Shown: positions 1-31,244, counted from the first letter of the stretch. The stretch is DNA of 64,000 nt from Blastocatellia bacterium (GCA_963834975.1 CAWIDZ010000004.1:127154-191153), one strand, 5' to 3'. Translations and numbers: made by a program. Notes: generated by a model not told the origin, from the letters alone.

Positions 1-1478
1 ATCCGTTTTGACCTTATTAGGACGAGAAGCGCAATAAGCCGGTTGTCGGCATCATACTTAAGGCCGAATCCGTTCGACTCGGCAGGAACATTGAGTTCGG
101 TCAGTTTATCGGTTATGTCATAGACGTAAGCAGTATGAGTTACTGAGTCGAGTTTCAGAGCAGTTCGATTACCAGCAGCGTCATAAACGTTCTCCATCAC
201 GTGGCCGAAAACATCCGTCTCAGTAGCTCTTCGGCCGCGATTATCATAGGTAAACGCGACAGTGCCATTTTGGTTTACAGCGGAGGTCAACCGCGAGAGA
301 TCGTCGTAACCGTATGTGGCGTATTGGGTCGAGCCCGTGTACATTATCCCGGTAAGGCGATTTAGGACATCATAGGCGTAGGTTGTTCCCGCACCGTTAT
401 GATCCGCGCGAGATGTTCTATTGCCGACCGCGTCATACCCGAAACTCATTGTCGTCCCAGCCCTCGTTTCCGATAGTTCTCGTCCCAGGGGATCATAGGT
501 AAACGTGTATTCGTGGCTCAATGCGTCTTTGACCTTGGTTAACTGCAAACGGGCGTTATAGGTGAGATAGGTCGGTTGCATCAGATCATCTGTTACGGTT
601 ATAAGCCGCTGAGCGTTGGGTATATCGTAGGAGTAAGCGTAGCTTGTCATGTGACCGGCAGTGTCTGCATGAGTAGCAACTTCACCAAGTTGGTCGTAGG
701 TAAAGTTTTCTTCCAATCGCGTCCCACCGATAGTCGGCAAAGGATACTTGATCTTCTTTACCCGATTGAAATCGTCGTATTCGACATCTGTGACATTCCC
801 CAGAGCGTCTATCTGAGACGTCAGATTCGACATCAGATCATAGCCATATGTCGTCGCGTGGCTCAGTGCGTCCGTTACGCCAGTGAGCCTGTAATTATTA
901 TCGTATGCATACGCCGTTGAATGGCCGAGTTCATCAGTGACGGATGTCCTGCGGCCCGCGAGATCATAACCAATAGATACAAAGTTCGTATCCGGGAATG
1001 TAATTTTGTTGATACGGTTATTAAGATCGTACTGAAGCGACGTTGCCTGGCTCAAGGCATTTGTAACGCTCGTCACCCGCGCTCGAGAGTCATAACCGAA
1101 GTTAGTGTGTTTACTGTTCGCATCGCTAATTTGCGTTAATCTGCCCGATGTATCGTAGGTCAGCGAAGTGGTGTGGTTGAGTGCGTCGGTGATCGATGAA
1201 GTTTGGCCCGCAGATGTATAGGTAAATGTTGTCGTATGACCGAGCGGATCGGTAGAGGTAAGCAGATTGCCGGTTGAGCTGTAAGTATTCGTCGTGATCC
1301 CGCCCATTCTGTCAGTGCTCGTCAGAACCTCGCCGAAGGAATTATGTGTAAATGTCTGTGTACCCAGAATATCCTGCATTGAGGTTATGTTTCGGTCGCT
1401 ATCATAACTATACAGAGTGTCGTGCAGAAGCGCGTCTCTTTTTCTAACAAGGTTTAGCCGCGCTGCTGCCGAGATCAT
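1..1478 (-). CDS. RHS/YD-repeat family protein, partial (C-terminal part lies beyond the left edge)
   Basis: One minus-strand frame stays consistent in my spot translations: 1380-1439 gives RDALLHDTLYSYDSDRNITS, 601-659 gives TSYAYSYDIPNAQRLI, and 1-59 gives KYDADNRLI. These are repeated Y-x-YD-x-x-(G/N)RL motifs. The ORF is absent from the track because it has no stop inside the window. The first in-frame ATG is at 1478. Confidence 0.8.
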   Translation of the reverse strand, partial: MISAAARLNLVRKRDALLHDTLYSYDSDRNITSMQDILGTQTFTHNSFGEVLTSTDRMGGITTNTYSSTGNLLTSTDPLGHTTTFTYTSAGQTSSITDALNHTTSLTYDTSGRLTQISDANSKHTNFGYDSRARVTSVTNALSQATSLQYDLNNRINKITFPDTNFVSIGYDLAGRRTSVTDELGHSTAYAYDNNYRLTGVTDALSHATTYGYDLMSNLTSQIDALGNVTDVEYDDFNRVKKIKYPLPTIGGTRLEENFTYDQLGEVATHADTAGHMTSYAYSYDIPNAQRLITVTDDLMQPTYLTYNARLQLTKVKDALSHEYTFTYDPLGRELSETRAGTTMSFGYDAVGNRTSRADHNGAGTTYAYDVLNRLTGIMYTGSTQYATYGYDDLSRLTSAVNQNGTVAFTYDNRGRRATETDVFGHVMENVYDAAGNRTALKLDSVTHTAYVYDITDKLTELNVPAESNGFGLKYDADNRLIALLVLIRSKR

Positions 1479-1722
1479 AGAAATACTGCGTGACCTCTGA
1501 ACCGCCGCCGCCGCAGCCACACACGCCCTCCATTTTTGTCACCAGGTTAGTTCCATATTTTCGCGTGTAATAGTATTTCGTTTCCCGTCCCAGAGCATCA
1601 GTTACTGTAAAGATATGGGGTCTGACATGCAAAATTGCGATTCTTGAACACTTCCCCGACCTCCTAAGCAATTTTACACCACGGTGCAAGTTGAGGTTAT
1701 TGACAGGCTGCCGTTTGTTCAT
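1444..1722 (-). CDS. YD-repeat N-terminal ORF, probably the frameshifted 5' end of the same rhs-family gene
   Basis: The 92-aa ORF contains VTDALGRETKYYYTRKYGTNLVTKMEG and ends ...TQYFYD, a YD motif. The YD repeat then continues in another frame (SAAARLNLVRKRDALLHD). There is a GGAG about 4 nt upstream of the ATG at 1722. Confidence 0.5.
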   Translation of the reverse strand: MNKRQPVNNLNLHRGVKLLRRSGKCSRIAILHVRPHIFTVTDALGRETKYYYTRKYGTNLVTKMEGVCGCGGGGSEVTQYFYDLGSSAAKPC

Positions 1723-1960
1723 GATCTCCGGCGACGGGGAACATTTATCGGAGTTCTCTCCGGATGTTCTTGACCGACGACTGCAGGGATTTTCAACACA
1801 ATATCTTCAGGGACTGAGCAGGACTGTTAGCTGCCCCTCCTTAGAAAAGCGGTGTAAGTTAAGTGCTTGTTAAGCTTATGCGTTTCCGGATATGAACTTT
1901 GACTGCTGATTAAATCTCTAAACAACCGGTAGAACGATTAAAATGGCAGAACTTGGAAAA

Positions 1961-2112
1961 TATTGCGAGTATATGTTAAATACTGCGAGTATTTGACATA
2001 TATTGACAGTATTCAATAAATACTGTCAGTATTTTGAATATTTTGCGAGTATTTTATAAATACTGTCAATATTTTTAAAATACTGACAGTATATTTCATA
2101 TTCTGGCATTTT
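1961..2112. repeat. Eight tandem 20-bp-phased repeats, each carrying a palindromic core ATACTG-N-CAGTAT (iteron- or operator-like array)
   Basis: Cores start at exactly 1961, 1981, 2001, 2021, 2041, 2061, 2081 and 2101. They read tattgcgagtat, tactgcgagtat, tattgacagtat, tactgtcagtat, ttttgcgagtat, tactgtcaatat, tactgacagtat and, degenerate, ttctggcatttt. The best unit is AAATACTG-T-CAGTATTT at 2018-2034. Spacers are AT-rich. Confidence 0.9.
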
Positions 2113-2509
2113 CGTCTTGAAAATACCCGTTTAGAGAACCCAGCGGCTGGCAATCGCAAACAGCGGCGGCGGGATCAATAGGCAAGAAGAAATTGAGAAT
2201 TGAGATGGATCGTAAGAAAAGAGCAAACTCTGCCGCATGCGGGTAGGAGCTATTGGGCCGCGTTCGGGCCGCCCCCTTACGGGAGGCGGTACTGACTTTG
2301 CTCTCTGCGATCTCCGCGTTAAAAAATTCTTCTATTCGTGGTGTTCGTGAGATCGGCCGGAGCTTGATGGTTTAGATCGCGGGGTTATGGTTATTGTGTC
2401 CCCTGCACCCGTAACAATAAACGATAAATTGACGCGGAAGAGCAACGTCCGGTTTATATCAATGTCGACGGAAACCTTTGATGTCATGTTTTTTTGCGTC
2501 CGGCCTCGA

Positions 2510-2538
2510 TTCACGCTAAATTAGCGTTTAGGTAGTAT
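2510..2538 (+). promoter_or_regulatory. Candidate sigma70-like promoter with an overlapping palindromic operator upstream of the 2643 operon
   Basis: TTCACG (2510-2515), a 17-nt spacer, then TAGTAT (2533-2538). The palindrome ACGCTAA-A-TTAGCGT (2513-2527) lies in the spacer. This is a pattern match only. Confidence 0.25.
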
Positions 2539-2642
2539 AGATCCTGAATAAGCAGTGCCCCCGCTTTCCCGCAGTTGCGGAGCGGCGTTAAACTGACGCT
2601 AAGCGCCGGCAGCTTTAGGATCGCGGCGTGAGGTTTTTGTAA

Positions 2643-3254
2643 ATGGCGAGACCATTGGTCCTTTCGCTCGACGGTGAAGAATTTTCCGTTGGGCTTGTCA
2701 AAATTGACCGAACTCAATTGTATGGCGATGTTACCGTCGAGGCCTTCGACGAACACGGCCACCCCGCGACGATCAAGGTGCTCGCCTCTGACGGTAATAC
2801 CCTCATCGACAAAGGCGGAACCGCGCTTGAGATGGTCGACAAAAACGGCAACTCGATCAACCGTGACAAGATACGCACCGTGGACCTGGAAGGCAACGAA
2901 CTCGAGACGGTCCCATCTTCATTTAGCCGCGTCAATAACTTAAAGCTCGCCTCCGTCGACGATTATCTTTCGCTGATCGTAAAGTCGGTGTATTGGCTTC
3001 AGGGTTATGAAAACTCCTCGCTCGCGGTTCTGTTTGATAATCTTAAGGAAGGCCATATTTATTCGTTCCCATTCAGCTTTCGCGACGGTATCGAATCGGA
3101 CGAGGCCTTTCTGATAGGCAGCAGCAAAGTTGCCTTTATGGTCATCGGCAATCAGGCGACGCTTGAATTTTTGACGTTCAAACAGGCAGCGGCACTCGAC
3201 ACGACCGAGGAAGACGAGATCTCGGCCGACGATCTGGATTTTGACCTGTTATAG
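2643..3254 (+). CDS. Hypothetical protein (203 aa), first gene of the ligase/PrimPol operon; has an acidic C-terminal tail
   Basis: Long ORF with a GAGG 8 nt upstream of the ATG. I recognise no family motif. It ends EEDEISADDLDFDLL. The next gene starts 12 nt downstream. Confidence 0.75.
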   Translation: MARPLVLSLDGEEFSVGLVKIDRTQLYGDVTVEAFDEHGHPATIKVLASDGNTLIDKGGTALEMVDKNGNSINRDKIRTVDLEGNELETVPSSFSRVNNLKLASVDDYLSLIVKSVYWLQGYENSSLAVLFDNLKEGHIYSFPFSFRDGIESDEAFLIGSSKVAFMVIGNQATLEFLTFKQAAALDTTEEDEISADDLDFDLL

Positions 3255-3266
3255 GAGATCTGACTA

Positions 3267-3974
3267 ATGGCGATAAATATCAGCAATCAGAAAAACCGCG
3301 ATGCGGTCGTCGCCCTCGAGGGGCTTTTTCCTCGTCGTGAGGTGCGATATGTCGACGAGAAAGGCGACCCCGTCCGCACACAAAAGGTCCTCAAATCGGA
3401 CGTCAAACATGACCTGCCCGAACTTCTCAAAAAACGGAAGAACCTCGAAAAAGTGGCAAAAGACCTGATCGCCGGCGACCCTGAGGTAGATCTCGAATCG
3501 TTTGGCACATTCCTCGCCGAAACATCGCGTGTTTACGTTTCAAAAGAGGGCATCGTCCATCTTGTCGAAGAATTTGAGGTCGTTATTGCCCCGGACGGGA
3601 CCGAACGCGAACGCCGGCCGCGGCGTAAGTTGGTGCAAAATCTGAACTCGGACATACCCCTCAGATGGACCGGGAAATTTATTAAGAAGGAAGAAGCAAT
3701 AGCGAAATTTGTCTTTAACAACAAACGCCAGTTGGCGCATGTTAACGGCCTGACGTTTGATTTTTTGTACGAAATGGCCGAGGAGCTCGACAAGAAAAAT
3801 TCGCTTCTGCTGATACGCGGCGGCGAAAAAGGTAATGAACCGATCGTGATGAACCGCGGCGGTAAACCGTATAACGCCTTTCTCGAGGGCCGCATCAAGG
3901 GCGACTCTTACTGCCTGATCCTGCATCTCTCGAACCTCGAACTAAAACGGCCAAAGGAGGTCGAAGATGTTTGA
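3267..3974 (+). CDS. Hypothetical protein (235 aa), second gene of the ligase/PrimPol operon
   Basis: Long ORF with a GGAG upstream. It overlaps the ligase start by 8 nt (ATGTTTGA). It is basic and charged (RERRPRRK) and I recognise no family motif. Confidence 0.75.
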   Translation: MAINISNQKNRDAVVALEGLFPRREVRYVDEKGDPVRTQKVLKSDVKHDLPELLKKRKNLEKVAKDLIAGDPEVDLESFGTFLAETSRVYVSKEGIVHLVEEFEVVIAPDGTERERRPRRKLVQNLNSDIPLRWTGKFIKKEEAIAKFVFNNKRQLAHVNGLTFDFLYEMAEELDKKNSLLLIRGGEKGNEPIVMNRGGKPYNAFLEGRIKGDSYCLILHLSNLELKRPKEVEDV

Positions 3975-5427
3975 CCTCGGCATAACCAAATCAAAATTTA
4001 CATGCAAATTTGGCGACTACTGCTTCGGCAAATCCGCCAACATCGCCGACCCGTCGCTGCAGCTGCGGGCCCAGGACTATCGACGCAAGATGAGCTCGAT
4101 GACCAGAGCCTTTTCAGGAGGCGATATCTATAAGCTGCCGAGGGCAAAAGACTATTACGTCTCGCGAAAATACGACGGCGAATTTGCGATGCTTTTCTAT
4201 GACGGTAAGACGATCTTGTCGATAAACGCCGGTGGTACCGTTCGCGTCGGCCTGCCCGCGTTTGCTGAAGCGGAAAAGCTTTTGAAAAAGGCCAAGGTCA
4301 AATCATGTGTGCTTGGCGCTGAGATCTATCTGCAGGACGTGAAATTTAAGACTCAGGCGATACACCAGGTCGTCGGGATCCTGCGTTCACCCAAAGCCAA
4401 GGCGGACCTCAGCCGCCTCGGCCTCGCGGTCTTTGATGTTATGGAATTTGACGGCAAACAGCCGTCATCGACGCAGGATGTTTTCGCATTACTGAAAAAA
4501 TGGTTCGGCAGCGGCAAATTAGCACACGCCGCCGAGGTCGTCGTTGCGGACGATCTGGACAAGATCACCGATATCTTTAACGAGTGGGTGGTGACTGAAG
4601 GCAGCGAGGGCCTGGTCGTGAGGAATGACCGTGCCGGATGGTTCAAGGTAAAATCCCGTCACAACCTCGATGTAGCTGTCATCGGGTTTTCAGAGGGGAT
4701 AGACGACCGCAAAGGCATGCTCCACGATCTGCTCGTCGCCGTTATGCGTGACGACGGCACCTATCACGAACTTGGCCGCGTCGGCGGCGGATTTACCGAC
4801 GAGAACCGCAAAGAGCTGGTTCGCGACCTGAGAAAGCGCACCGCTCCGTCAGATTATGTCGCCGTCAATAACGACTATGTCGCGTACGAAATGATCAAGC
4901 CCGGCCCCGTCATCGAGATCTCATGCCTTGACCTTATTCCCGAAAGATCAAGGGGCGGCCCGGTCAACCGAATGGTGCTCGAATGGGACGGCAAGCGTTA
5001 TCTCGCACTCGAGCGGATGCCGATCGTCAGCATGATCTCGCCGCAGTTCGTCCGCATTCGCGATGATAAGGAAGCTGTGGTCGCCGACGTGAATATCAGT
5101 CAGATCAACGATCTCGTCGAGGTGCCAAAGATCACAAAGACCGCTCGCGATGAAAAGAAGCCCGAGAGCCAACTTCTCGAGCGCGCCGTTTACACCAAGG
5201 TCATGAAAGGCAACACTATGGTCCGCAAACTGCTGTTATGGAAAACGAACAAGGAAAAGGACGAACAGTTCCCGGCCTATGTCGTTTATCTCACGGATTT
5301 CAGCCCGAACCGGGAAAACGCGCTTGAGCGTGATATCAAGATCGCCCATACCGTTTCAATGGCGCGAAGGCATTTCGATGATATGTCAAAGGCCAAGTTT
5401 ATCGGCGGTTGGGTAAAGGCGGAGTAA
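3967..5427 (+). CDS. ATP-dependent DNA ligase family protein with a roughly 110-aa C-terminal extension
   Basis: Nucleotidyltransferase motifs are present: I SRKYDGEF (Lys68), III VLGAEIYL, IIIa LAVFDVMEF, IV EGLVVR, V WFKVKSRHNLDVAVIG. An OB-domain end FVRIRDDK (motif VI-like) sits at aa 361-368. Residues 375-486 form an extra domain. Confidence 0.9.
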   Translation: MFDLGITKSKFTCKFGDYCFGKSANIADPSLQLRAQDYRRKMSSMTRAFSGGDIYKLPRAKDYYVSRKYDGEFAMLFYDGKTILSINAGGTVRVGLPAFAEAEKLLKKAKVKSCVLGAEIYLQDVKFKTQAIHQVVGILRSPKAKADLSRLGLAVFDVMEFDGKQPSSTQDVFALLKKWFGSGKLAHAAEVVVADDLDKITDIFNEWVVTEGSEGLVVRNDRAGWFKVKSRHNLDVAVIGFSEGIDDRKGMLHDLLVAVMRDDGTYHELGRVGGGFTDENRKELVRDLRKRTAPSDYVAVNNDYVAYEMIKPGPVIEISCLDLIPERSRGGPVNRMVLEWDGKRYLALERMPIVSMISPQFVRIRDDKEAVVADVNISQINDLVEVPKITKTARDEKKPESQLLERAVYTKVMKGNTMVRKLLLWKTNKEKDEQFPAYVVYLTDFSPNRENALERDIKIAHTVSMARRHFDDMSKAKFIGGWVKAE

Positions 5428-5430
5428 GGA

Positions 5431-6711
5431 ATGGTATTTCAGCGGTTTAGAGAATTTGCCGGGAACAAACGACTTCTTTGGATCGCCGAAGAGTGGCACC
5501 GCTATGCCGAAGAGCTTGCCGAATGGGCCATGAAGCGTCTCGTTAACCGACGCGACGTCTGGAGCCAATACACCTTGCGAAACGGTGTCATCGGCGTGGT
5601 CATGCTGCCGATAAAAGAGCTCCGCAAAAAAGGCAATCACATGGTCACGATCAAAAAGCTGGCCCGCCATTTTGCCGGCGAAAAACCCAGCGACCTGATC
5701 GGGCTTCATTCGATCAGCGATCATTCGACATGCAAATGGTTTGCTATCGACGTTGACCTGCATAACGAATCCGTCGCAAATGCTGACGAGGTGGCGGCTG
5801 CAAATTTTGCGGCCTGCCTGCACTGGGCCGACCAACTGCGTTCGCAAAAGATGGACCCGATGCTGCTCGACAGCAACGGGGTCGGCGGTTTTCATCTGTG
5901 GGTCTTGCTGGACAAGGAATATCCGCTGGCCGATACATATGATTTTGTGGACGAACTTCGCTCCAACTGGGAGGACCTCGATCTGCCGCGTCGGCCTGAG
6001 ATATTTCCGCCGAAGCGTGAGGTCGGGCCCGACGATCTGCCGTACGCTCTCAGGGTCCCGGGCCGTCATCATACCCGGCCCTTCTACACACGGCTCTGGA
6101 ATTTTGACCCGATGGGCGAGAACGAATGGCTCGAGGGCGGTGAGGCGATCGAGGCAATGATGAGAACGATCCCGACCAAACTCCCGAAAGCCAACCTTGA
6201 CGACAAACCGGAAAGACCGAAAACGGCCCAACCAAAAAAGAAAAAAGCCAAAACCTCTGTAACTAAATCAAAACCCCGCGTTTGTCTGGATCTGGACGGC
6301 GTCCTCGCTGAGTATGACGGATGGAAAGGGATCGGAAAGATCGGTCCTCCTCTGCCCGGCGCCCGCGAATTTGCCGAAAATTTGTCAAAGGTAGCGGACA
6401 TTGTGATCTTTAGCAGCAGATGCTCAAGCGAACCTGATGCCCGCGGCGATATTTCAGGATTGACCCCCGGTCAGGCGCGGATACACATCATCGAATGGCT
6501 CGAAAAAAATGAGATACCCTTCACCGATGTTTTTATGGGCGAGGGCAAACCACGAGTCGCCGCGATCATAGATGACCGGGCAGTTTCATGCCGGCCGCAG
6601 GAGAGCGAAGAGTCTTATGCTGAAACGCTCGAAGCGGTTGGCCGATTGTTAAAGCGTAAATCGGCCAAAGTTAAACGGCCAGGCCGCATCGTTAAGTCAA
6701 AAGCGACTTAG
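5431..6711 (+). CDS. Primase-polymerase (AEP/PrimPol) fused to a C-terminal HAD-superfamily phosphatase-like domain
   Basis: AEP motifs: FAIDVDLH (DxD, aa 105-111), GGFHLWVLL (aa 152-160) and EIFPPK...ALRVPGRHH (aa 190-213). A Lys-rich linker KPERPKTAQPKKKKAKTSVTKSKPR follows. The HAD motif I is CLDLDGVL (aa 285-292), with IFSSR and IIDDR further on. The gene starts 3 nt after the ligase stop. Confidence 0.85.
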   Translation: MVFQRFREFAGNKRLLWIAEEWHRYAEELAEWAMKRLVNRRDVWSQYTLRNGVIGVVMLPIKELRKKGNHMVTIKKLARHFAGEKPSDLIGLHSISDHSTCKWFAIDVDLHNESVANADEVAAANFAACLHWADQLRSQKMDPMLLDSNGVGGFHLWVLLDKEYPLADTYDFVDELRSNWEDLDLPRRPEIFPPKREVGPDDLPYALRVPGRHHTRPFYTRLWNFDPMGENEWLEGGEAIEAMMRTIPTKLPKANLDDKPERPKTAQPKKKKAKTSVTKSKPRVCLDLDGVLAEYDGWKGIGKIGPPLPGAREFAENLSKVADIVIFSSRCSSEPDARGDISGLTPGQARIHIIEWLEKNEIPFTDVFMGEGKPRVAAIIDDRAVSCRPQESEESYAETLEAVGRLLKRKSAKVKRPGRIVKSKAT

Positions 6712-6766: not shown

Positions 6767-7252
6767 TCATCCTTTCTTCTCTTTCCTGGACGGAGCCTTG
6801 CTTTTCGCTTTCTTTGCCGGAAAGACCGTCTCGATCTTCCAATCAGGCTCTATGTACTTATCGTTGGCCTTGATCAAAAGCCAGTCTTTGTCTTTTCCAT
6901 TGAGCTTTATCAATGCGAAAGATCCGTGAATCTTTGAGCCGAAAAACGTAATCTCCAGCTTACCCGCTTTTAACTGCCGCAGCGGATCCTCATCCGTTTC
7001 AAATTCGCCTTTGTCCCAGATCCTGACCTCGCCGGCGCCATAGCTGCCCTCGGCGATCTCGCCCTCAAAATCAATATAGCTTAGTGCATGATCGGGAACT
7101 GCCACCGCGAGGCGTTTATCCGCCGGGTTCAAAGAGACGCCTTTGGGTACGGCCCACGATTTCAGGACACCGTCGATCTCAAGCCGCAGATCAAAGTGCA
7201 GATTGGTCGCGTGGTGTTCGTGGATCACAAATCGTTTTCGCATATTGTTCAA
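6767..7252 (-). CDS. Stand-alone LigD-type 3'-phosphoesterase (PE) domain protein
   Basis: RFVIHEHHATNLHFDLRLEIDGVLKSWAVPKGVSLNP...AVPDHALSYIDFEGEI..GSYGAGEVRIWDKG matches the conserved LigD PE signature (H-x-H, HFD-RLE, SWAVPKG, FEG, YGaG). Confidence 0.9.
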   Translation of the reverse strand: MNNMRKRFVIHEHHATNLHFDLRLEIDGVLKSWAVPKGVSLNPADKRLAVAVPDHALSYIDFEGEIAEGSYGAGEVRIWDKGEFETDEDPLRQLKAGKLEITFFGSKIHGSFALIKLNGKDKDWLLIKANDKYIEPDWKIETVFPAKKAKSKAPSRKEKKG

Positions 7253-7263
7253 CCCAGCTTTGC

Positions 7264-7869
7264 CTACGGCTTAGAATAACTAACTCTTACATTCAAAAGC
7301 CGGGCAGGGAATGTCGCAAAATCTTCGACCTCGACATGTGAGCCATTTGCTCCTTTATCCTCTTTCCAGCTTATTTTTGCAGCGGCTATGTAAGTGCCGT
7401 CGCCCTTGCCGGTCGCCGGATCGATGTTTAATTCGATATATCCGAACGGATAGTCGAGTGATCGATATCCGCCGCGAAGTTCGGCAAAACGGGTCCAGCG
7501 TTCAAAGACGATATAGATCCGTCGCATGCCGTCAACGTTTCTTTCCCGAACAGCGTTGATCGTTTTTGCAAGATGGCCGTCAACCGAGAATGATCCGCGG
7601 TCATCGTCCCTTATTCCGTCGAGCAGCGCGTCCTGACCTTTATCCTGCAGCAGGTCCAGAAAGTGCATAGCCCTGTCCGTCGGTGTCTCGTCCTTGATAT
7701 TGATAGTGAAAGTACTGGTAACCGCGCGGGTATTAAAACCGCTGCCGTAACTTAGGATAGTACCGGTATATGTTTCCCGGTTGGCCTGTCCTAATGTCGA
7801 AATTGCAAGAAATGTAAGGCACAAAGCCAGAGCAGTACCAGTGATCTTGAGTTTTTTCATATTGTTCAT
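7264..7869 (-). CDS. Secreted hypothetical protein (signal peptide)
   Basis: 201-aa ORF with an N-terminal hydrophobic signal, MKKLKITGTALALCLTFLAISTLGQA. It stops 11 nt upstream of the PE gene start. No family recognised. Confidence 0.6.
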   Translation of the reverse strand: MNNMKKLKITGTALALCLTFLAISTLGQANRETYTGTILSYGSGFNTRAVTSTFTINIKDETPTDRAMHFLDLLQDKGQDALLDGIRDDDRGSFSVDGHLAKTINAVRERNVDGMRRIYIVFERWTRFAELRGGYRSLDYPFGYIELNIDPATGKGDGTYIAAAKISWKEDKGANGSHVEVEDFATFPARLLNVRVSYSKP

Positions 7870-8445: not shown

Positions 8446-9060
8446 ATGTGTGGACGATATAAGATGACTGCCGAGCAGCAGGAACTGTTCGATCAGATGC
8501 CTTACCTCGAACAGGATGAATATTTTGATATTCACGGCTATAAAAAGCAGCCTGAGATATTTCCGGGAACCGAGATATTGGCGGTCAACAATAAACATAA
8601 AGCCGAGGCCGTCTGGTGGACAATTGAGGATTTTGACTACAAAGGCGTTTGGCGGCGGGCTATAAATGCAAAGTCGGAAAATGTCCGATTTGCCAATATG
8701 TTCAAGGAAGCTTTTTTCACCGACCGCATTCTTATCCCGGCCACAGGTATCTTCGAATGGCAGGATCAGCCCGACAAAACCAAGAAGAAATTTGAGATAT
8801 GGTTTGATGAGCCTGTTTTTGCACTCGGAGGCCTGGCCAGAGAATGTGAGATCAAAGGCGGATCTAAACGCTGCGGTGTGATCCTGACGACTCGTGCCAA
8901 TGAGGTTTTTGCCGAGATCCACAATTCAAAGCAGCGGCAGGCGGTCGTTGTTCGCCGGCCTGACTACGAAAAATGGCTCGACCCGTCCACCCCATTCCAG
9001 GAATTAGAAAGGATTATGGAACCGGTTGATAACGAAGAAACCCACTTTAAGAGCGTCTGA
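8446..9060 (+). CDS. SOS response-associated peptidase (SRAP/YedK-like abasic-site processing protein)
   Basis: It starts MCGRY, the catalytic Cys2 hallmark of SRAP proteins. At 204 aa its size is typical. Confidence 0.8.
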   Translation: MCGRYKMTAEQQELFDQMPYLEQDEYFDIHGYKKQPEIFPGTEILAVNNKHKAEAVWWTIEDFDYKGVWRRAINAKSENVRFANMFKEAFFTDRILIPATGIFEWQDQPDKTKKKFEIWFDEPVFALGGLARECEIKGGSKRCGVILTTRANEVFAEIHNSKQRQAVVVRRPDYEKWLDPSTPFQELERIMEPVDNEETHFKSV

Positions 9061-11018: not shown

Positions 11019-13683
11019 CTAGCGGGCTATTGCCGGAATGTCACCGGTGAGTCCAAAGTGGTATGCCTGGAATGTTCCGTCTGAACTTCGCAATACGTAC
11101 CAGTTGCCATCCGATGGACGAAAGACCGCAATGTCCGTTTTTCCGTCATCATCGTAATTACCTGCAACAGGGATGTCCCCGTTCAGGCCGAACGGCATCG
11201 CCTGGAATCCGCCGTCAGAGCTGCGGAGCGTGTACCACGTTCCCATCGAAGGCCGGTAAACCGTCTGGTCTGCTCTGCCGTCGCCGTCGAAGTCACCGCG
11301 GACCGGAATGTCACCGCTTAGACCAAAGTTCGTCGCGGCAAACTGTCCGTCAGAGCTTCGCAGCCAATACCAGTTGCCCTGGCTGGGACGGAACACGACG
11401 AGGTCGTCTTTGCCGTCACCATCCATATCAGCCGGGATCGGCAGGTCTTCGGCAATACCGAAATGGGTTGAGCGATTACCTGTGTTATTGCTCTGCTGGA
11501 TATACCAGACACCGTCTGATGGGCGATAGACCGCAATATCGATGCGTCCGTCACCGTCAAAGTCTCCGCGGACTGGAATATCCGTCGAAAGGCCCCACGA
11601 CGATTTGGTTACGCCTCCGTCCGAGCTGCGATTGATCTCCCAGGTACCCTGGCCGTTGTTGTTGCGGTAAACGGCTGCATCGGTACGTCCGTCGCCGTCA
11701 TAATCGGCTGACACGATCGTGTCCGAAGCCTGAACCGAATGGCAGGGCCGAAAAACCATTGGTATTTTGTACATACCATGTCCCGGTCGAAGGCCGGAAT
11801 ACTGAGAAATCATGACGGCCGTCGCCGTCAAAGTCGCTGTTTCTCGAATGATGTCTGAACGAGCCGCGGATCTCGCCTGCGGGGTTGTTCACGCTCATGA
11901 TCACTGCTGACCAGAGACCAGACCGAAGCTGCTGCACCGCCGCCCCTGATACATTAAAGGTGACGCTGGCAAAATGACCGTTCTGGCCGCCTACTACACC
12001 CAGATCGACGATCGTTGTTGATGTTCCGACCGTTGTTTCTATCCGTGCTCCCGTCTGATTGCTCGACAAATTGTGGAACTCGCCAAAGACGGTCGCTTGT
12101 GTCTCGTCGGCATTTAATGAAACCTTGATCTCACCGGTGGCAGATGTCGTAACCGGGGGCGTTACCTGGCTGCCGCTCAGATGCGTTTCAAAGGATCGGC
12201 CGAATGGGGTCGGGCTTGGTGTGCCGCCCGGTGTACCTGTCGGCGAAGGGCTCGGGCTGGCAAAGCTGCCGAAAGCTCCTGAAAGGATTGAAGCACCGCC
12301 GTTGTTAACAGAGATCGGTGTTCCGACGATGACGGTAGGTACCGTTTGTCCGTTGTCGCTTCTGAGACGGAGCCGGCCCTCGCCGCCGCTCTCGAGTATC
12401 ATCGAACCGGCGGTTGTGCCGTTTACGATAACGTTGAGCGATGTTCCGATCGGCAGGTTGACCTGACGGACGCGAACTTCGAGTTCTGTGCGGCTGCTAT
12501 GGATCTCATACTCTGCAAATCCGGTCGGCAGTACGCCATTCAATGTCGAACCTGTAAGTCCGGCGAAAAGATCGTTCCCATTAGGTGTACCACTTGGTGA
12601 CGGGCTAGGTGTGACCGATGGCGTTCCTGACGGGGTACCAGTCGGCGTCGCACTCGGAGTTCCCGATGGCGTACCGGTCGGTGATGGCGTCGGGCCGCCT
12701 GCTCCGAATATGCCGGAAACCAGAATGGTGCCGCCATTCCGAACCTCTACCGTCGAACCGTCATTAACAAACGGAACAGCCTGGCCGTCCTGGGTCCTTA
12801 ATTTAAGCTTGCCTTTTCCATTGATATCAACAATGGCCTGGCCAATAACGCTGCCATCGACAAACACGTCGAGGCTCGTTCCGGCTGCGAGATTAGTATC
12901 TTCCACCTCGACCTCTATTTCACGCTGTCCATTTGAATAAAGCTGCCAAACAGCCGCTCCGTGCGGGTTGATCGCACCGCTCGGCGCAACTAGATTTGCT
13001 GTACGTACCAATACCGGTGAGCCGGTCGGGGACGGGGAAGGTGTCGCGGTACCTGTTCCGCTGGGGGAAGGTGTCGCTGTACCCGTTCCCGATGGAGATG
13101 GAGTTGCCGTGCCGGTTCCTGATGGAGATGGGGTTGCCGTGCCGGTTCCTGAAGGTGAAGGAGTTGCCGTACCTGTGCCTGATGGCGATGGCGTCGCGGT
13201 ACCAGTACCTGACGGAGTGCCTGTAGGAGTCGGTCCGCCGCCGCCGAAAATGCCATTAACTAATACTGTGGGTCCAAATTGAACCTGAACGGTAGAGCCG
13301 TCATTAACGACCGGCACGGCCTGGCCGTCCTCGGTCTTAAGTTTTAATTTTGCTCTTTGGCGGTCATCAACGATCGCCTGGCCGATCAGATTTCCGTCAA
13401 CGAATACGTCAAGGCTCGTACCCATCGTAAAGTTGAGGTCCTCGGTTTCAACCTCTAATTCACGATTGCCGCTTTGATAGAGCTGCCATGCGGCGGCTCC
13501 GTGCGGATTGACGCTGCCGGTCGGTGACGTCAGATTTGCAGTACGGGTCAATATGACCGGCGTACCGTCGGCTTTTACATTATTTAGAAGAAATGGGACC
13601 GACACCCATGCTGTAAGCAATATGGCCGCAACGGTTAATTGCCAAACTATTTTGTTATACGATCTTGGATTTACTTTTTTCAT
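11019..13683 (-). pseudogene. Large secreted repeat protein (three roughly 105-aa modules, CHRD-like domain, FG-GAP/VCBS repeats) with one apparent frameshift near 11740
   Basis: The 661-aa ORF (11698-13683) has a signal peptide and three homologous modules (TANL..P.G..NPHGAA.WQLY...E.EVE.ED...GTSLDVFVDG). It also has a CHRD-like segment ending AGEIRGSF and begins FG-GAP repeats (DFDGDGRHDFSVFRPSTGTWY). The repeats continue in another frame in ORF 11019-11831 (ASDTIVSADYDGDGRTDAAVYR...). Confidence 0.75.
13029..13212 (-). repeat. Coding 30-bp tandem repeat (6 x SGTGTATPSP linker)
   Basis: The protein repeats GTGTATPSPS six times. The DNA units differ at synonymous positions. Confidence 0.85.
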
Positions 13684-26421: not shown

Positions 26422-28314
26422 TCAATACCTGAACGCGGCCTGAGTCGGCTTGTCGCCGTTCGTACCGAATTGAAACGCAGCAAATGACCCGTCAGAACTG
26501 TTCATCCGGTACCAGTTGCCGTCTGATGGGCGGAAGACTGAGAGGTCGGCTTTGCCGTCTCCGTCGAAGTCGCCGGGTGCCGGGATGTCGTCTGATAGGC
26601 CGAAGGGATAGGCGGTGTAGACGGCTCCGTTGCTGTTCTTGATGTACCAAAATCCGTTCGACGGGCGAAAGACCGCGAGATCGGTTTTGCCGTCTCCGTC
26701 GTAATCAGCCGGGACCGTCACATCGGTTCCAAAACCGAAAATCTCCCCAAACAGTGACCCATCCGAACTGTTGACCTGATACCAGGCCCCGGTCGATGGA
26801 CGGAAAACCGCAATGTCAGCTTTGCCGTCACCGTCGAAGTCACCCAAGGTAGGCTTGTCTTCGCTCGCCCCAAACTGCATGCCAAAGAACGACCCGTCAC
26901 TGCTGTTCTGCCGGTACCACGTCCCGGTCGACGGCCTGAACACTGAAATATCCGCCTTACCGTCACCGTCATAATCGCCAGGCGTCGGCAGGTCCTCGGC
27001 CAGGCCGAAAACATAGTAAGCGACCGTGCCGTCACTGCTTTGAAATACATACCAGATCCCGGTTTCCGGCCGGTAAACGGCGATGTCCGTCTTACCGTCC
27101 CCATCATAATCCGCCGGTGCGATCTTGTCGGTGCCAAAACCAAACAACGTTCCATATAGTCCCGACGTCGACCGTTGTAGATACCACGCTCCGTCCACCG
27201 GCCTGAAGATCGAGATATCTGTTTTGCCGTCTCCGTCAAAATCAAAACCAGGCCGGTTGACGCTAGTGAGGACAATGTCGTTACCGTCACCGCCCTGATA
27301 TGTGATGCGAAAGGCTAGACTTAGCGGCGCAGCGATCGTCGAACCTTCGGGAGCATTTAGGAACGTTCCGTTGATCTCATCCGTGCCGTCTTTTCGCAAA
27401 ATAATAAACGAATCACCGATTGCCGGACGAAAGAAAGCCAGGGGGAGAGGCTCAAGGCGTGCATTACCAAGTGAAACAATTCCGGTCACATTTAATTGGT
27501 CGTGTCCGTTCACTCCTGGGGTCGTTCCGCCGATCTTACAGGCATAATTTCCGTTTGCCCCGAAAGTCAGTCCATTATTAATATTGAGAATTCCGGTTTG
27601 GTACGGTAAGGTCCCCGCGCTAATAACGCCGGATGTAACGGTAGTTGAGCCAACCGTCCCCGAACCACCAAAACCACTCAGACCTGTTGTTCCACCAATT
27701 GTTCCACCTGAAACTGAGACCGTGCTGCCGGGAATATTCGCGTCCACAACAAGTGAGCCATCATCCAACCTGATAGCACCCGTGTATCCGCCGGTTGAAG
27801 AAATTCGTGATGCACCCGACCCAGTCTTCGTCAGACTGCCTGTTCCGAAAATGAGGCTTATCCCAAAACTACCACCACCATCCAAAGTAAGGACTGTAGT
27901 TTCTGTAAATCCATTGCCGATAAACAATGCGAAGATGGATGCAGTTGACCCTTGTGCTGCATAAAAATTCTGGGAATTTGTAATTTGTATTGTGATGATC
28001 AGGAATTGGGTTCCACCATTGACTTGTAAACCGTTTGTTAACCGCAAGGTGTTACCACTGACTGAATAGTTTCCGCCCTCAATGGTGAGCGAGTTAAAAG
28101 AGAAAAAGGTAGTTGAAAAGTCATTATTGGTCATAAACCGGGCTGACGCCGCGGGAAAAACCAAGTCGTCATCATAAACAGGACTGACATCACTGACCCA
28201 ATTTGCAGCAGTTGTCCAGTTGCCGTCGGCACCTCCGCCGTCCCAGATCTTAACCGCAGAAAAAGAATTGACTGCTGAAAATATGAAGAGTGCTGTTAGG
28301 AAACATATTTTCAT
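26422..28314 (-). CDS. Secreted autotransporter-associated beta-strand repeat / FG-GAP (VCBS) repeat protein
   Basis: Signal peptide MKICFLTALFIFSAVNSFSA. A PATR-like start VKIWDGGGADGNWTTAANW. Eight FG-GAP-like units follow (DFDGDGKTDISIFRPVDGAWY...). The 630-aa ORF is intact. Confidence 0.85.
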   Translation of the reverse strand: MKICFLTALFIFSAVNSFSAVKIWDGGGADGNWTTAANWVSDVSPVYDDDLVFPAASARFMTNNDFSTTFFSFNSLTIEGGNYSVSGNTLRLTNGLQVNGGTQFLIITIQITNSQNFYAAQGSTASIFALFIGNGFTETTVLTLDGGGSFGISLIFGTGSLTKTGSGASRISSTGGYTGAIRLDDGSLVVDANIPGSTVSVSGGTIGGTTGLSGFGGSGTVGSTTVTSGVISAGTLPYQTGILNINNGLTFGANGNYACKIGGTTPGVNGHDQLNVTGIVSLGNARLEPLPLAFFRPAIGDSFIILRKDGTDEINGTFLNAPEGSTIAAPLSLAFRITYQGGDGNDIVLTSVNRPGFDFDGDGKTDISIFRPVDGAWYLQRSTSGLYGTLFGFGTDKIAPADYDGDGKTDIAVYRPETGIWYVFQSSDGTVAYYVFGLAEDLPTPGDYDGDGKADISVFRPSTGTWYRQNSSDGSFFGMQFGASEDKPTLGDFDGDGKADIAVFRPSTGAWYQVNSSDGSLFGEIFGFGTDVTVPADYDGDGKTDLAVFRPSNGFWYIKNSNGAVYTAYPFGLSDDIPAPGDFDGDGKADLSVFRPSDGNWYRMNSSDGSFAAFQFGTNGDKPTQAAFRY

Positions 28315-28619: not shown

Positions 28620-28900
28620 TCATTTTCCTGACAATTTAGCGGTTTTCTCAAGAGGAAAACGGGTTATTTGCCGGCAGAGTGCTTTTCCGATCGGGAAAGG
28701 CGTTTTCGCATCGGTTCAAGGTGTTTCCCGTCGGTACGGTCGTTGTCCCGGCCGGGGAGCGGTTTTCCTGTCGCGAGAAGCGGGGTTTCTTCGGAAAATG
28801 GTTTTACTGACGGTTTAGGCGTTTTCCCGACAGAGAAGTGGGCTTTACCGGCAGGATGCGGCTTTACCGACAGTTAAGAGGCTTTACCGACGCGGGAACG
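28620..28900. repeat. About 14 degenerate tandem repeats with a roughly 20-bp period (core G-N-TTTNCCGNC-R-G)
   Basis: Units begin near 28621, 28640, 28660, 28681, 28700, 28721, 28742, 28761, 28782, 28801, 28819, 28841, 28860 and 28881. Examples are gcttttccgatcgg, gcgttttcccgacag and ggctttaccgacag (the last form appears about three times at the right end). Confidence 0.8.
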
Positions 28901-30066: not shown

Positions 30067-31143
30067 ATGAGCGAAAAGCTTCATCTTTTGGGCCTGTCGA
30101 GACGCGAACTCGAAGATCTCGCCATTGCAGCGGGCGAGCCGAAGTATCGCGCGACGCAGGTCTTTAAGGCGATGCATCAGCGGCGGCTGACCTCGTTTGA
30201 CGAGATCACCGACATGCCAAAACGCCTGCGGGCAAATTTTAATGCAAAGGCCGAACTGTCGCGTCTAACGGTTGAGTCGCGTTATGTCTCGATCGACGGT
30301 ACGCGGCGGTACCTGATGAAAACTAAAGACGGTTACCCGGTCGAGGCAGTTTATATTCCGACCGAGAACCGCGATACCATCTGTTTTTCTTCGCAATCGG
30401 GGTGCCCGCTCAAATGCGACTTTTGCCTGACGGCAAAGCTCGGGCTGCTGCGGAACCTGACGCCGGGCGAGATAGTCGAACAGATCGTGATCGTGCTCAA
30501 CGACGTTTACGGCGTCGGCGTCGAAACGCCGCACGGTACAAATCTGGTAGGGATGGGCGCGGGTGAGCCGTTCCTGAATTTTGAAAACCTGATCGCGGCA
30601 CTTCGTATAATGGCGGACGAGGACGGTCTGTTCATTGTCCCAAACCGTGTTACGGTTTCGACGGCCGGCATCGTGCCAAAGATCTATGAGCTTGCAAAAC
30701 TTGATGATCGTCCTCATCTGGCGATCTCGCTTGCGGCACCTACAGATGAGCTGCGAGAACAGCTAATGCCGATCAATAAGCGATGGGACATTTCGGAACT
30801 GATGACGGCGGCAAAGGAATTTGAGAGCAGCCTCAAACGCGGCGAGCGGTTTACGTTCGAATATGTAATGCTCGGCGGCGTAAATGATTCGGACGCTCAG
30901 GCGGCTGAGCTTGCCCGGCTGCTTGACCGATATCAGCTTAGCCGAGTGAAGATAAACCTGATCCCGCACAACGGCGCCGAGCAGCTCGACTATCAAACGT
31001 CGACGCCTGAGCGCGTCCAGCGGTTTAAAAGCATCCTCGAATCGCGGGGTGTGTCAGCATATGTACGCAGCCCGCGCGGGAGTGATATCTATGCAGCCTG
31101 CGGCCAGTTGGCGGCAATGGAAGGAGAAAAAGTGAAAATGTGA
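30067..31143 (+). CDS. rlmN: 23S rRNA/tRNA adenine-C2 methyltransferase, radical SAM
   Basis: KYRATQVFKAMHQRR near the N-terminus, radical-SAM cluster CPLKCDFC, and C-terminal GSDIYAACGQL. Confidence 0.9.
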   Translation: MSEKLHLLGLSRRELEDLAIAAGEPKYRATQVFKAMHQRRLTSFDEITDMPKRLRANFNAKAELSRLTVESRYVSIDGTRRYLMKTKDGYPVEAVYIPTENRDTICFSSQSGCPLKCDFCLTAKLGLLRNLTPGEIVEQIVIVLNDVYGVGVETPHGTNLVGMGAGEPFLNFENLIAALRIMADEDGLFIVPNRVTVSTAGIVPKIYELAKLDDRPHLAISLAAPTDELREQLMPINKRWDISELMTAAKEFESSLKRGERFTFEYVMLGGVNDSDAQAAELARLLDRYQLSRVKINLIPHNGAEQLDYQTSTPERVQRFKSILESRGVSAYVRSPRGSDIYAACGQLAAMEGEKVKM

Positions 31144-31244
31144 AAAAGTGAAAGAGTGAAAAAGTAAGAGGGGCTTGAGAACGGTTACAAGCATCTTTGC
31201 TCTTAAACTTTTTCACTTTTAACCTTTTTCACTTTTCCACTTTA
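31121..31244 (+). terminator. Long imperfect hairpin built from GTGAAAAA octamer repeats (probable terminator or RNA-stability element after rlmN)
   Basis: The left arm, 31121-31170, contains five GTGAAA(A/G)-type units. The loop is about 29 nt. The right arm, 31200-31244 (ctcttaaactttttcacttttaacctttttcacttttccacttta), is its near reverse complement and is T-rich. Confidence 0.5.

Follow-up and report, generated by a model that had tools for sequence, protein, structure and literature searches.

A phased array of 13-bp palindromes in a Blastocatellia genome, a candidate stand-alone chromosomal element

Phased arrays of protein-binding sites are a hallmark of replication origins, centromeres and higher-order repressor complexes, and nearly all of those known to us adjoin the genes that they serve. 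The array described here raises the question of which genes, if any, it serves. It lies in a 64,000-nucleotide stretch of DNA from a Blastocatellia bacterium (GCA_963834975.1, CAWIDZ010000004.1:127154-191153; the whole stretch is called the window), between an rhs-type gene and an operon encoding a DNA ligase and a primase-polymerase (PrimPol). An initial annotation had read the array either as the origin or iteron set of a PrimPol-driven replicon remnant or as a regulatory platform for this operon. The sequence comparisons below do not support an operator, origin or centromere of the neighbouring operon, and point instead to a stand-alone DNA element. The array is an orphan member of the known class of phased-site arrays, and is closest in form to plasmid centromeres and cooperative operator arrays.

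The array and its flanks

The array at positions 1940-2112 consists of nine units in an exact 20-bp register, with the site motif ATAYTGNCARTAT repeated at this spacing. Unit 1, the boundary unit (1940-1952, plus strand), has the core AAAATGGCAGAAC and the spacer TTGGAAA. Seven strong palindromes follow at 1960-2092 (no strand assigned), with the 13-bp sequence ATAYTG-N-CARTAT, 7-bp spacers of free sequence and scores of 12.6-20.5 bits. They are unit 2, starting at 1960 (core ATATTGCGAGTAT, spacer ATGTTAA), unit 3 at 1980 (ATACTGCGAGTAT, TTGACAT), unit 4 at 2000 (ATATTGACAGTAT, TCAATAA), unit 5 at 2020 (ATACTGTCAGTAT, TTTGAAT), unit 6 at 2040 (ATTTTGCGAGTAT, TTTATAA), unit 7 at 2060 (ATACTGTCAATAT, TTTTAAA) and unit 8 at 2080 (ATACTGACAGTAT, ATTTCAT). 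The terminal unit 9 (2100-2112, no strand assigned), ATTCTGGCATTTT, is degenerate, scoring 7.4 bits by the family matrix described below, and approximates the reverse complement of the boundary unit. On the other side, three weak units with a G/C-rich centre (GCGTTTCCGGATA, TGACTGCTGATTA and AAACAACCGGTAG) occupy 1880-1939 on the plus strand, starting at 1880, 1900 and 1920 in the same register. The element as a whole is about 190-260 bp long: the three weak units lead to the boundary unit, which is followed by some eight palindromes of 13 bp, and a single degenerate unit closes it.

The 20-bp-phased palindromes noted in the initial annotation are real, as shuffles, lag self-identity and a matrix scan agree. 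With up to two mismatches allowed, a pattern scan for ATACTGNCAGTAT gives six matches inside the array and a single one in the rest of the 64 kb; shuffled 64-kb sequence gives a mean of 0.84 matches, and none of 100 shuffles reaches seven. The array matches itself with an identity of 0.64 when shifted by 20 and of 0.67 when shifted by 40, whereas 2000 shuffles never exceed 0.458 at any lag. All seven sites that score 12 bits or more by the family matrix in the 64 kb are inside the array. TRF calls periods of 20 and 40 on the array, and GC content drops to 0.275 there, which bears out the AT-rich context described earlier. The eight starts previously assigned, from 1961 to 2101, denote these sites but take the second base of each as its first; the one at 2101 belongs to the degenerate unit, and the boundary unit at 1940 had been missed.

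The flanking genes had been named essentially correctly, with a minus-strand YD-repeat frame on the left and a four-gene operon from 2643 on the right. The left neighbour, which is not part of the element, is a YD-repeat (rhs-type) gene at 1-1722 on the minus strand, and its 512-codon open frame (3-1538, minus strand) runs off the window's left end. This gene is split, with an overlapping N-terminal frame at 1447-1725 (minus strand) and a GC-rich run at about 1500-1540; the overlap suggests a frameshift (pseudogene or sequencing error) or an alternative or internal start. Between the array and gene 1 of the operon lies a non-coding spacer of 530 bp (2113-2642, no strand assigned), also outside the element, with no homologue in related loci, no Rfam match and no credible ORF.

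Other copies of the array and their conservation

A metagenome collection was searched with an exact two-site pattern of about 44 bits, for which chance matches are negligible by rough estimate, and 20 contigs were returned. Thirteen of the 20 carry the same kind of array (L082, L084/L098, L085/L093, L087, L094, L096, L097 and L099/L100), and all of these come from soil or rhizosphere samples. Two further arrays, L104 and L105, were reached by walking from rpiB homologues. The named relatives of these homologues are Pyrinomonadaceae, and so are the arrays that can be placed by a flanking gene. Contigs L081/L091, L083/L092/L095, L086, L088/L089 and L090, with 2-4 units each, were discarded as family members; among them, L081/L091 and L083 seem to be DNA of eukaryotes or of some other unrelated origin. 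Four near-identical 20-bp tandem units, ATATTGCCAGTATGATCATA, with the same core motif are present in L081 (780-859) and L091 (794-873); they are judged an unrelated coincidence, the two contigs being without long ORFs and eukaryotic-looking. In the literature, the motif was not found in any paper.

The array family occurs in at least five unrelated gene contexts, three of which are between convergent 3' ends without a promoter. The array lies between the convergent 3' ends of rpiB and a glyoxalase-family gene in L084/L098, L096, L094, L099/L100, L104 and L105, between convergent isochorismatase and DinB-like genes in L087, and between another convergent gene pair in L097. It is 3' of lptD in L082 and downstream of a MerR neighbourhood in L085. 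In the window it occupies the divergent spacer between the rhs gene and the NHEJ-like operon. Chromosomal housekeeping genes such as rpiB, smpB and lptD flank the arrays, and no recurrent gene family was found beside the arrays across the contexts examined (flanks of up to 20 kb per copy). The window resembles the other arrays within 1938-2125 only, the homology stopping at the array edges, and arrays in different contexts share cores only. The search for further motif copies that the initial annotation had recommended thus turns up arrays of this kind in five or more further gene contexts. That annotation had also named the finding that would count against its own reading, a dispersed genome-wide repeat with no link to the operon. 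The array indeed has no positional link to the operon, but it is rare rather than dispersed: the 64 kb read of the source genome hold a single array, and the 829 kb of operon-homologue loci hold none.

The rpiB locus shows that close lineages differ in the presence of the array. L104 has a 457-bp rpiB/glyoxalase spacer containing it, while in L112 (RpiB 88% identical) the two genes are 2-3 bp apart with no array, and it is also absent from L106/L107 and L109-L111. The array is therefore gained or lost as a module, and is dispensable at a given locus. The presence/absence pattern fits mobile DNA as well as host function.

The family matrix (60 units) reads A-T-A-Y-T-G-N-C-A-R-T-A-T, a perfectly symmetric 6-1-6 logo in which any base is tolerated at the centre. 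The 7-bp spacer is almost unconstrained and shows only a weak T at position 15, G/C at 16-18 and A at 19-20; this bias adds a 10-bp alternation of AT- and GC-richness. Intervals are exactly 20 bp in 74 of the 76 unit-to-unit steps in 11 arrays. From the boundary unit to the last unit there are 9-10 units in all eight arrays compared, and in all eight the boundary unit stands nearly unchanged at one end; it is the best-conserved single unit and sets the polarity of the element. The degenerate end is also similar in other arrays. A recent internal duplication of 40 bp (two units) is present in L104 at 7219-7298. In L105, a near relative of L104, a 4-bp deletion at 1818-1846 leaves one 16-bp interval, the sole register break in the family and possibly an assembly error. 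A sigma-54 promoter in the boundary unit was considered and rejected, as the TGGCAG...TTGC spacing is 10 instead of 12.

Among the orthologous arrays, those of L084, L094 and L099 can be aligned one unit to another, with unit number and register kept. Compared in pairs, they agree at 0.82 over the 12 core positions but at 0.59 over the spacer and centre (Fisher p=6e-9), and at 0.58-0.66 in the flanks. Since units correspond one to one and cores are conserved above spacers, the arrays evolve by point substitution under core selection, with no concerted repeat turnover. The cores are under purifying selection, and the earlier view of a helically phased site array of the cooperative-binding kind is supported. 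The symmetric positions 4 and 10 occur as C/G in 21 units, C/A in 22, T/G in 14 and T/A in 11, with no covariation (Fisher p=0.62). Because the half-sites vary independently, selection for a hairpin, a cruciform or RNA pairing is unlikely. The lack of covariation fits two half-sites of one dimer that would be read independently.

The array also has a direction. In the three units beyond the boundary unit, S7-C8-R9 is found in 5/6, 4/6 and 4/6 of six independent arrays, against a background of 0.077, and no such signal is found beyond the opposite end of the same six arrays. With the weak units on the boundary side counted in, the full element has about 13 units (260 bp) and is directional.

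A binding platform and its possible roles

With moderate confidence, the array is interpreted as a self-contained chromosomal cis element that serves as a cooperative platform for a homodimeric protein encoded elsewhere. Each palindrome would bind one homodimer of a sequence-specific protein, whose gene would lie elsewhere in the genome. As 20 bp are two helical turns, neighbouring dimers would touch laterally, and about 9-10 of them (up to about 13 with the weak sites) would assemble cooperatively into one nucleoprotein particle of defined size. The strong sites would nucleate the complex and the weak sites would extend it on one side. At 10.5 bp per turn, each dimer would be offset by about -34 degrees from the last, so that about ten units would make one superhelical turn, and this rotation per step would agree with the uniform length of the arrays. 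Wrapped DNA would also be expected to alternate between AT- and GC-richness every 10 bp, as the units do. We infer both cooperative assembly and wrapping purely from geometry. At the window locus, such a complex in the divergent spacer could occlude promoters by accident of position.

The particle may be an architectural or topological barrier, may be centromere-like, may act as a titration site, or may be the platform or remnant of a mobile element. It is possible, and put forward only tentatively, that the arrays form an undescribed class of chromosomal cis elements in Blastocatellia/Pyrinomonadaceae, portable and polar, with about 13 sites that make one wrapped particle and a role at the level of the chromosome. 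If true, this role could be that of an orphan centromere, of a supercoil or transcription barrier between convergent genes, or of a gene-dosage or titration device, rather than local regulation. The array is conserved, strictly phased, polar and portable between chromosomal contexts in abundant, almost unstudied soil bacteria, and finding its putative binder might uncover an Acidobacteria system, new to science, that organises chromosomes or resembles partition. The sharp 13-bp motif and the 20-bp rule make a search for the binder directly testable.

Plasmid centromeres are among the closest known forms. In sopC of F, 12 tandem units of 43 bp each contain a short inverted repeat. The array likewise resembles sopC and parC of pSK41 and R1 (type I/II partition) in being a single-locus series of about 8-12 regular repeats. 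A centromere-like partition site of the parC/sopC type would be bound by a RHH ParR/ParG-like or a ParB/KorB-like HTH protein, and the complex would be moved by a ParA- or ParM-type motor, on behalf of the chromosome or of an integrated-plasmid relic. This explanation is unlikely, although the array is rare and its approximately ten phased repeats at a single locus would form a complex of fixed size. Plasmid centromeres are arrays of this kind, with about 8-12 regularly spaced repeats at a single locus that form a higher-order nucleoprotein complex of defined size (PMC5016525). However, they normally adjoin their own par operon (PMC5016525) and double as its operator, whereas no parA, parM, parB or parR gene is near any copy of the array in the visible flanks. 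The units of sopC are conserved throughout, whereas the array has a 20-bp period with free spacers; it is also chromosomal, lies between housekeeping genes (rpiB, smpB, lptD) and is polar, with weak sites on one side. Its presence or absence among close lineages also argues against a centromere, as does the lack of any similar array in plasmids or viral contigs. A blastn search of the 72,556 plasmids in PLSDB gave nothing relevant, and three scans of viral contigs gave chance matches only. One candidate viral copy, L113, was rejected as an ordinary promoter in a high-GC prophage.

It is also improbable that the array is a non-autonomous mobile or transplanted element, in which the phased sites would be transposase or recombinase sites, in the manner of Tn7 or Mu, and which would land in harmless intergenic DNA. 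Such mobility would account for a module that is complete in itself and whose flanks are unrelated, for its occurrence in five or more different contexts, for the filled and empty sites at rpiB/glyoxalase, and for three independent contexts at convergent 3' ends, which are safe for insertions. In the window, moreover, the array replaces the adh_short gene of relatives (see below). The copy number is low, however (a single array over the 64 kb, and no array over the 829 kb from related loci), and no recent transposition is visible, as copies in different contexts share only their cores. The boundary unit is conserved at one end only, so there are no true terminal inverted repeats, and neither a target-site duplication at the filled/empty rpiB junction nor a transposase gene nearby was found. 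Selection for mobility alone also leaves unexplained why cores are conserved in situ among orthologues.

The REP and BIME elements of enterobacteria, to which gyrase, IHF and other host proteins bind and which are mobilised in trans, are likewise extragenic arrays of palindromic units, often after convergent genes, but they are GC-rich, hairpin-forming and present in hundreds of copies, whereas the array is AT-rich, rare and strictly phased, with no selection for pairing. Assignment to a REP, BIME or MITE family finds no basis in the copy number over the 64 kb and 829 kb scanned, and covariation, terminal inverted repeats and duplication are all absent.

The neighbouring operon and local functions

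The four-gene operon at 2643-6711 (plus strand) is not part of the element. Gene 1 (2643-3254, plus strand) is Ku-like by predicted fold, and gene 2 (3267-3974, plus strand) is probably Ku-like by a weak predicted model. They are followed on the plus strand by an ATP-dependent DNA ligase (3967-5427) and an AEP polymerase fused to a HAD/PNK-like phosphatase (5431-6711). A LigD 3'-phosphoesterase and a SRAP protein adjoin the operon (6767-7252 and 8446-9060, listed with the module). Genes 1 and 2 have no match in Pfam, NCBIfam, PADLOC or PHROG. The AlphaFold model of gene 1 has a mean pLDDT of 67, with 84-94 in most of the core, and only Ku chains are among its best 50 matches in the PDB, the first being B. 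subtilis Ku (E=8e-6), then M. tuberculosis Ku and then eukaryotic Ku70/80. The model of gene 2 is poor (pLDDT 54), its PDB matches are Ku only (best E=1.7e-3), and profile comparison found no relationship between the two genes. Gene 1 is thus predicted to have a Ku fold and gene 2 probably has one, and the two may constitute a heterodimeric bacterial Ku. Many Pyrinomonadaceae have this operon, which is a split NHEJ-like module, and its reading is corrected from a replicon to a DNA-end-repair module. Ku proteins are ring-shaped and bind DNA ends, not specific sequences. Gene 1, and probably gene 2, are therefore not expected to encode the sequence-specific binder of the array, a role that had earlier been considered for them.

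More than 480 homologues of gene 1 were found, nearly all in Pyrinomonadaceae/Blastocatellia. The operon-homologue set consists of 80 genome loci around such homologues and the metagenomic loci L101-L103 (gene 1 at 70-72% identity) and L108 (73% nucleotide identity over the operon), giving 84 loci and 829 kb. Scanning by motif, TRF and position matrix found the array in none of the 84 loci, and neither a motif cluster, an AT-rich tandem repeat nor any phased array is present in them. Nucleotide homology of the window to related loci starts at 2627, 16 bp before gene 1, and the window from 1 to 2700 has no match to these loci upstream of that point. The closest relatives have a short-chain dehydrogenase gene (adh_short) immediately upstream of gene 1, and in the window lineage its place is taken by the array and 530 bp of unique non-coding DNA. 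No remnants of adh_short or of the glyoxalase gene are present in the 530-bp spacer. In L108, rhs-like genes homologous to the window's left neighbour lie beyond the dehydrogenase gene. Conservation of the array next to homologous operons, which the initial annotation had proposed as a check, is thus seen at 0 of 84 loci. Nothing ties the position of the array to the operon, and by that annotation's own measure the operon-linked reading does not hold.

A local cooperative operator would repress the divergent promoters of the rhs gene, the NHEJ-like operon or both. Operators such as OR/OL of lambda and 434 and those of CopG are odd-length palindromes that are bound by dimers, lie about two turns apart and are filled cooperatively; omega repeat operators also belong among the cooperative arrays (PMC5016525). 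The array has odd-length palindromes and a spacing of about two turns in common with all of these, and repressor operators typically have helically phased palindromes. In the window the array occupies a divergent spacer and contains promoter-like hexamers (5, with 1.8 expected), but such matches are expected in any AT-rich stretch. The known operators have 2-4 sites (7-10 heptads for omega) that overlap a promoter beside the regulator gene, whereas the array has 9-13 sites and no adjacent regulator gene, and often lies in promoter-less spacers between convergent 3' ends. Gene 1 is 530 bp away from it and the rhs start 220 bp or more, and it is absent upstream of all 84 homologous operons. A conserved gene link was not found, nor was promoter overlap in the three independent convergent contexts. 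A local operator is accordingly quite doubtful, and the regulatory platform for the operon envisaged in the initial annotation loses its footing on the same evidence.

The half-sites of the E. coli-type LexA box (TACTG-N10-CAGTA), TACTG and CAGTA, are identical to those of the array. Repair genes (SRAP, LigD-PE and the NHEJ-like operon) are near the array in the window, but not beside the other arrays. LexA half-sites are 10 bp apart in one or two sites, whereas those of the array are 1 bp apart in nine sites. The array has neither the LexA half-site spacing nor the position upstream of SOS genes, and the resemblance of the half-sites is judged coincidental.

An iteron-type replication origin or a PrimPol-driven replicon remnant, the other proposal of the initial annotation, is largely refuted and has very little probability. 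The iterons of P1, F, R6K and RK2 are likewise repeats of about 20 bp, phased at about two turns in AT-rich DNA, and the AEP primase-polymerase gene is 3.3 kb from the array. Iterons, however, are asymmetric direct repeats that bind Rep monomers beside rep, DnaA boxes and an unwinding element, and none of these was found at the array, whose units are palindromic and not directional. There is no DnaA box within 500 bp on each side in five of eight arrays, and the others have isolated matches with one mismatch rather than a cluster. No rep gene is present in the window or in any flank of the other copies. The PrimPol is part of the widely conserved chromosomal NHEJ-like operon, which is without the array at all 84 other loci. 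The genes on the right of the array are not oriented as they would be beside an origin, GC skew is uninformative or contrary, and close lineages differ in whether they have the array.

An array that binds no protein, as a neutral slippage minisatellite or a hairpin, cruciform or RNA element, is scarcely credible and is refuted by the conservation pattern, since against the TRF call of a tandem repeat, the recent 40-bp duplication in L104, the long imperfect inverted repeats that palindromic units give and weak sub-threshold microRNA-like Rfam matches on the palindromes stand units that are orthologous one to one with no concerted evolution, conserved cores with free spacers, symmetric positions without covariation, 6-bp arms that cannot form stable hairpins around a 1-nt loop, and Rfam scores far below gathering (27 vs 68 bits, window 1-4000).

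The window contains other repeats. A second array at 28621-28899, 26.7 kb away, has about 14 contiguous direct repeats of 17-22 bp. Their consensus is GTTTTCCCGnCnG, in which the central YGNCRG is reminiscent of the main motif. Compared with the weak flank units of the main array, its scores are not above background, and it is absent from all other loci compared. It lies upstream of a FG-GAP/TcdB-like gene (26422-28314, minus strand). At 31126-31243, five tandem 8-bp units (GAAAAAGT) are found at the 3' end of rlmN, which ends at 31143. About 40 bp past them are about 4.6 units of the reverse complement (ACTTTTTC), and the two jointly form a long imperfect inverted repeat. A 30-bp tandem repeat with 4.6 copies at 13079-13217 is inside the gene for a CHRD-domain protein (11698-13683, minus strand), where it probably encodes a 10-residue peptide repeat.
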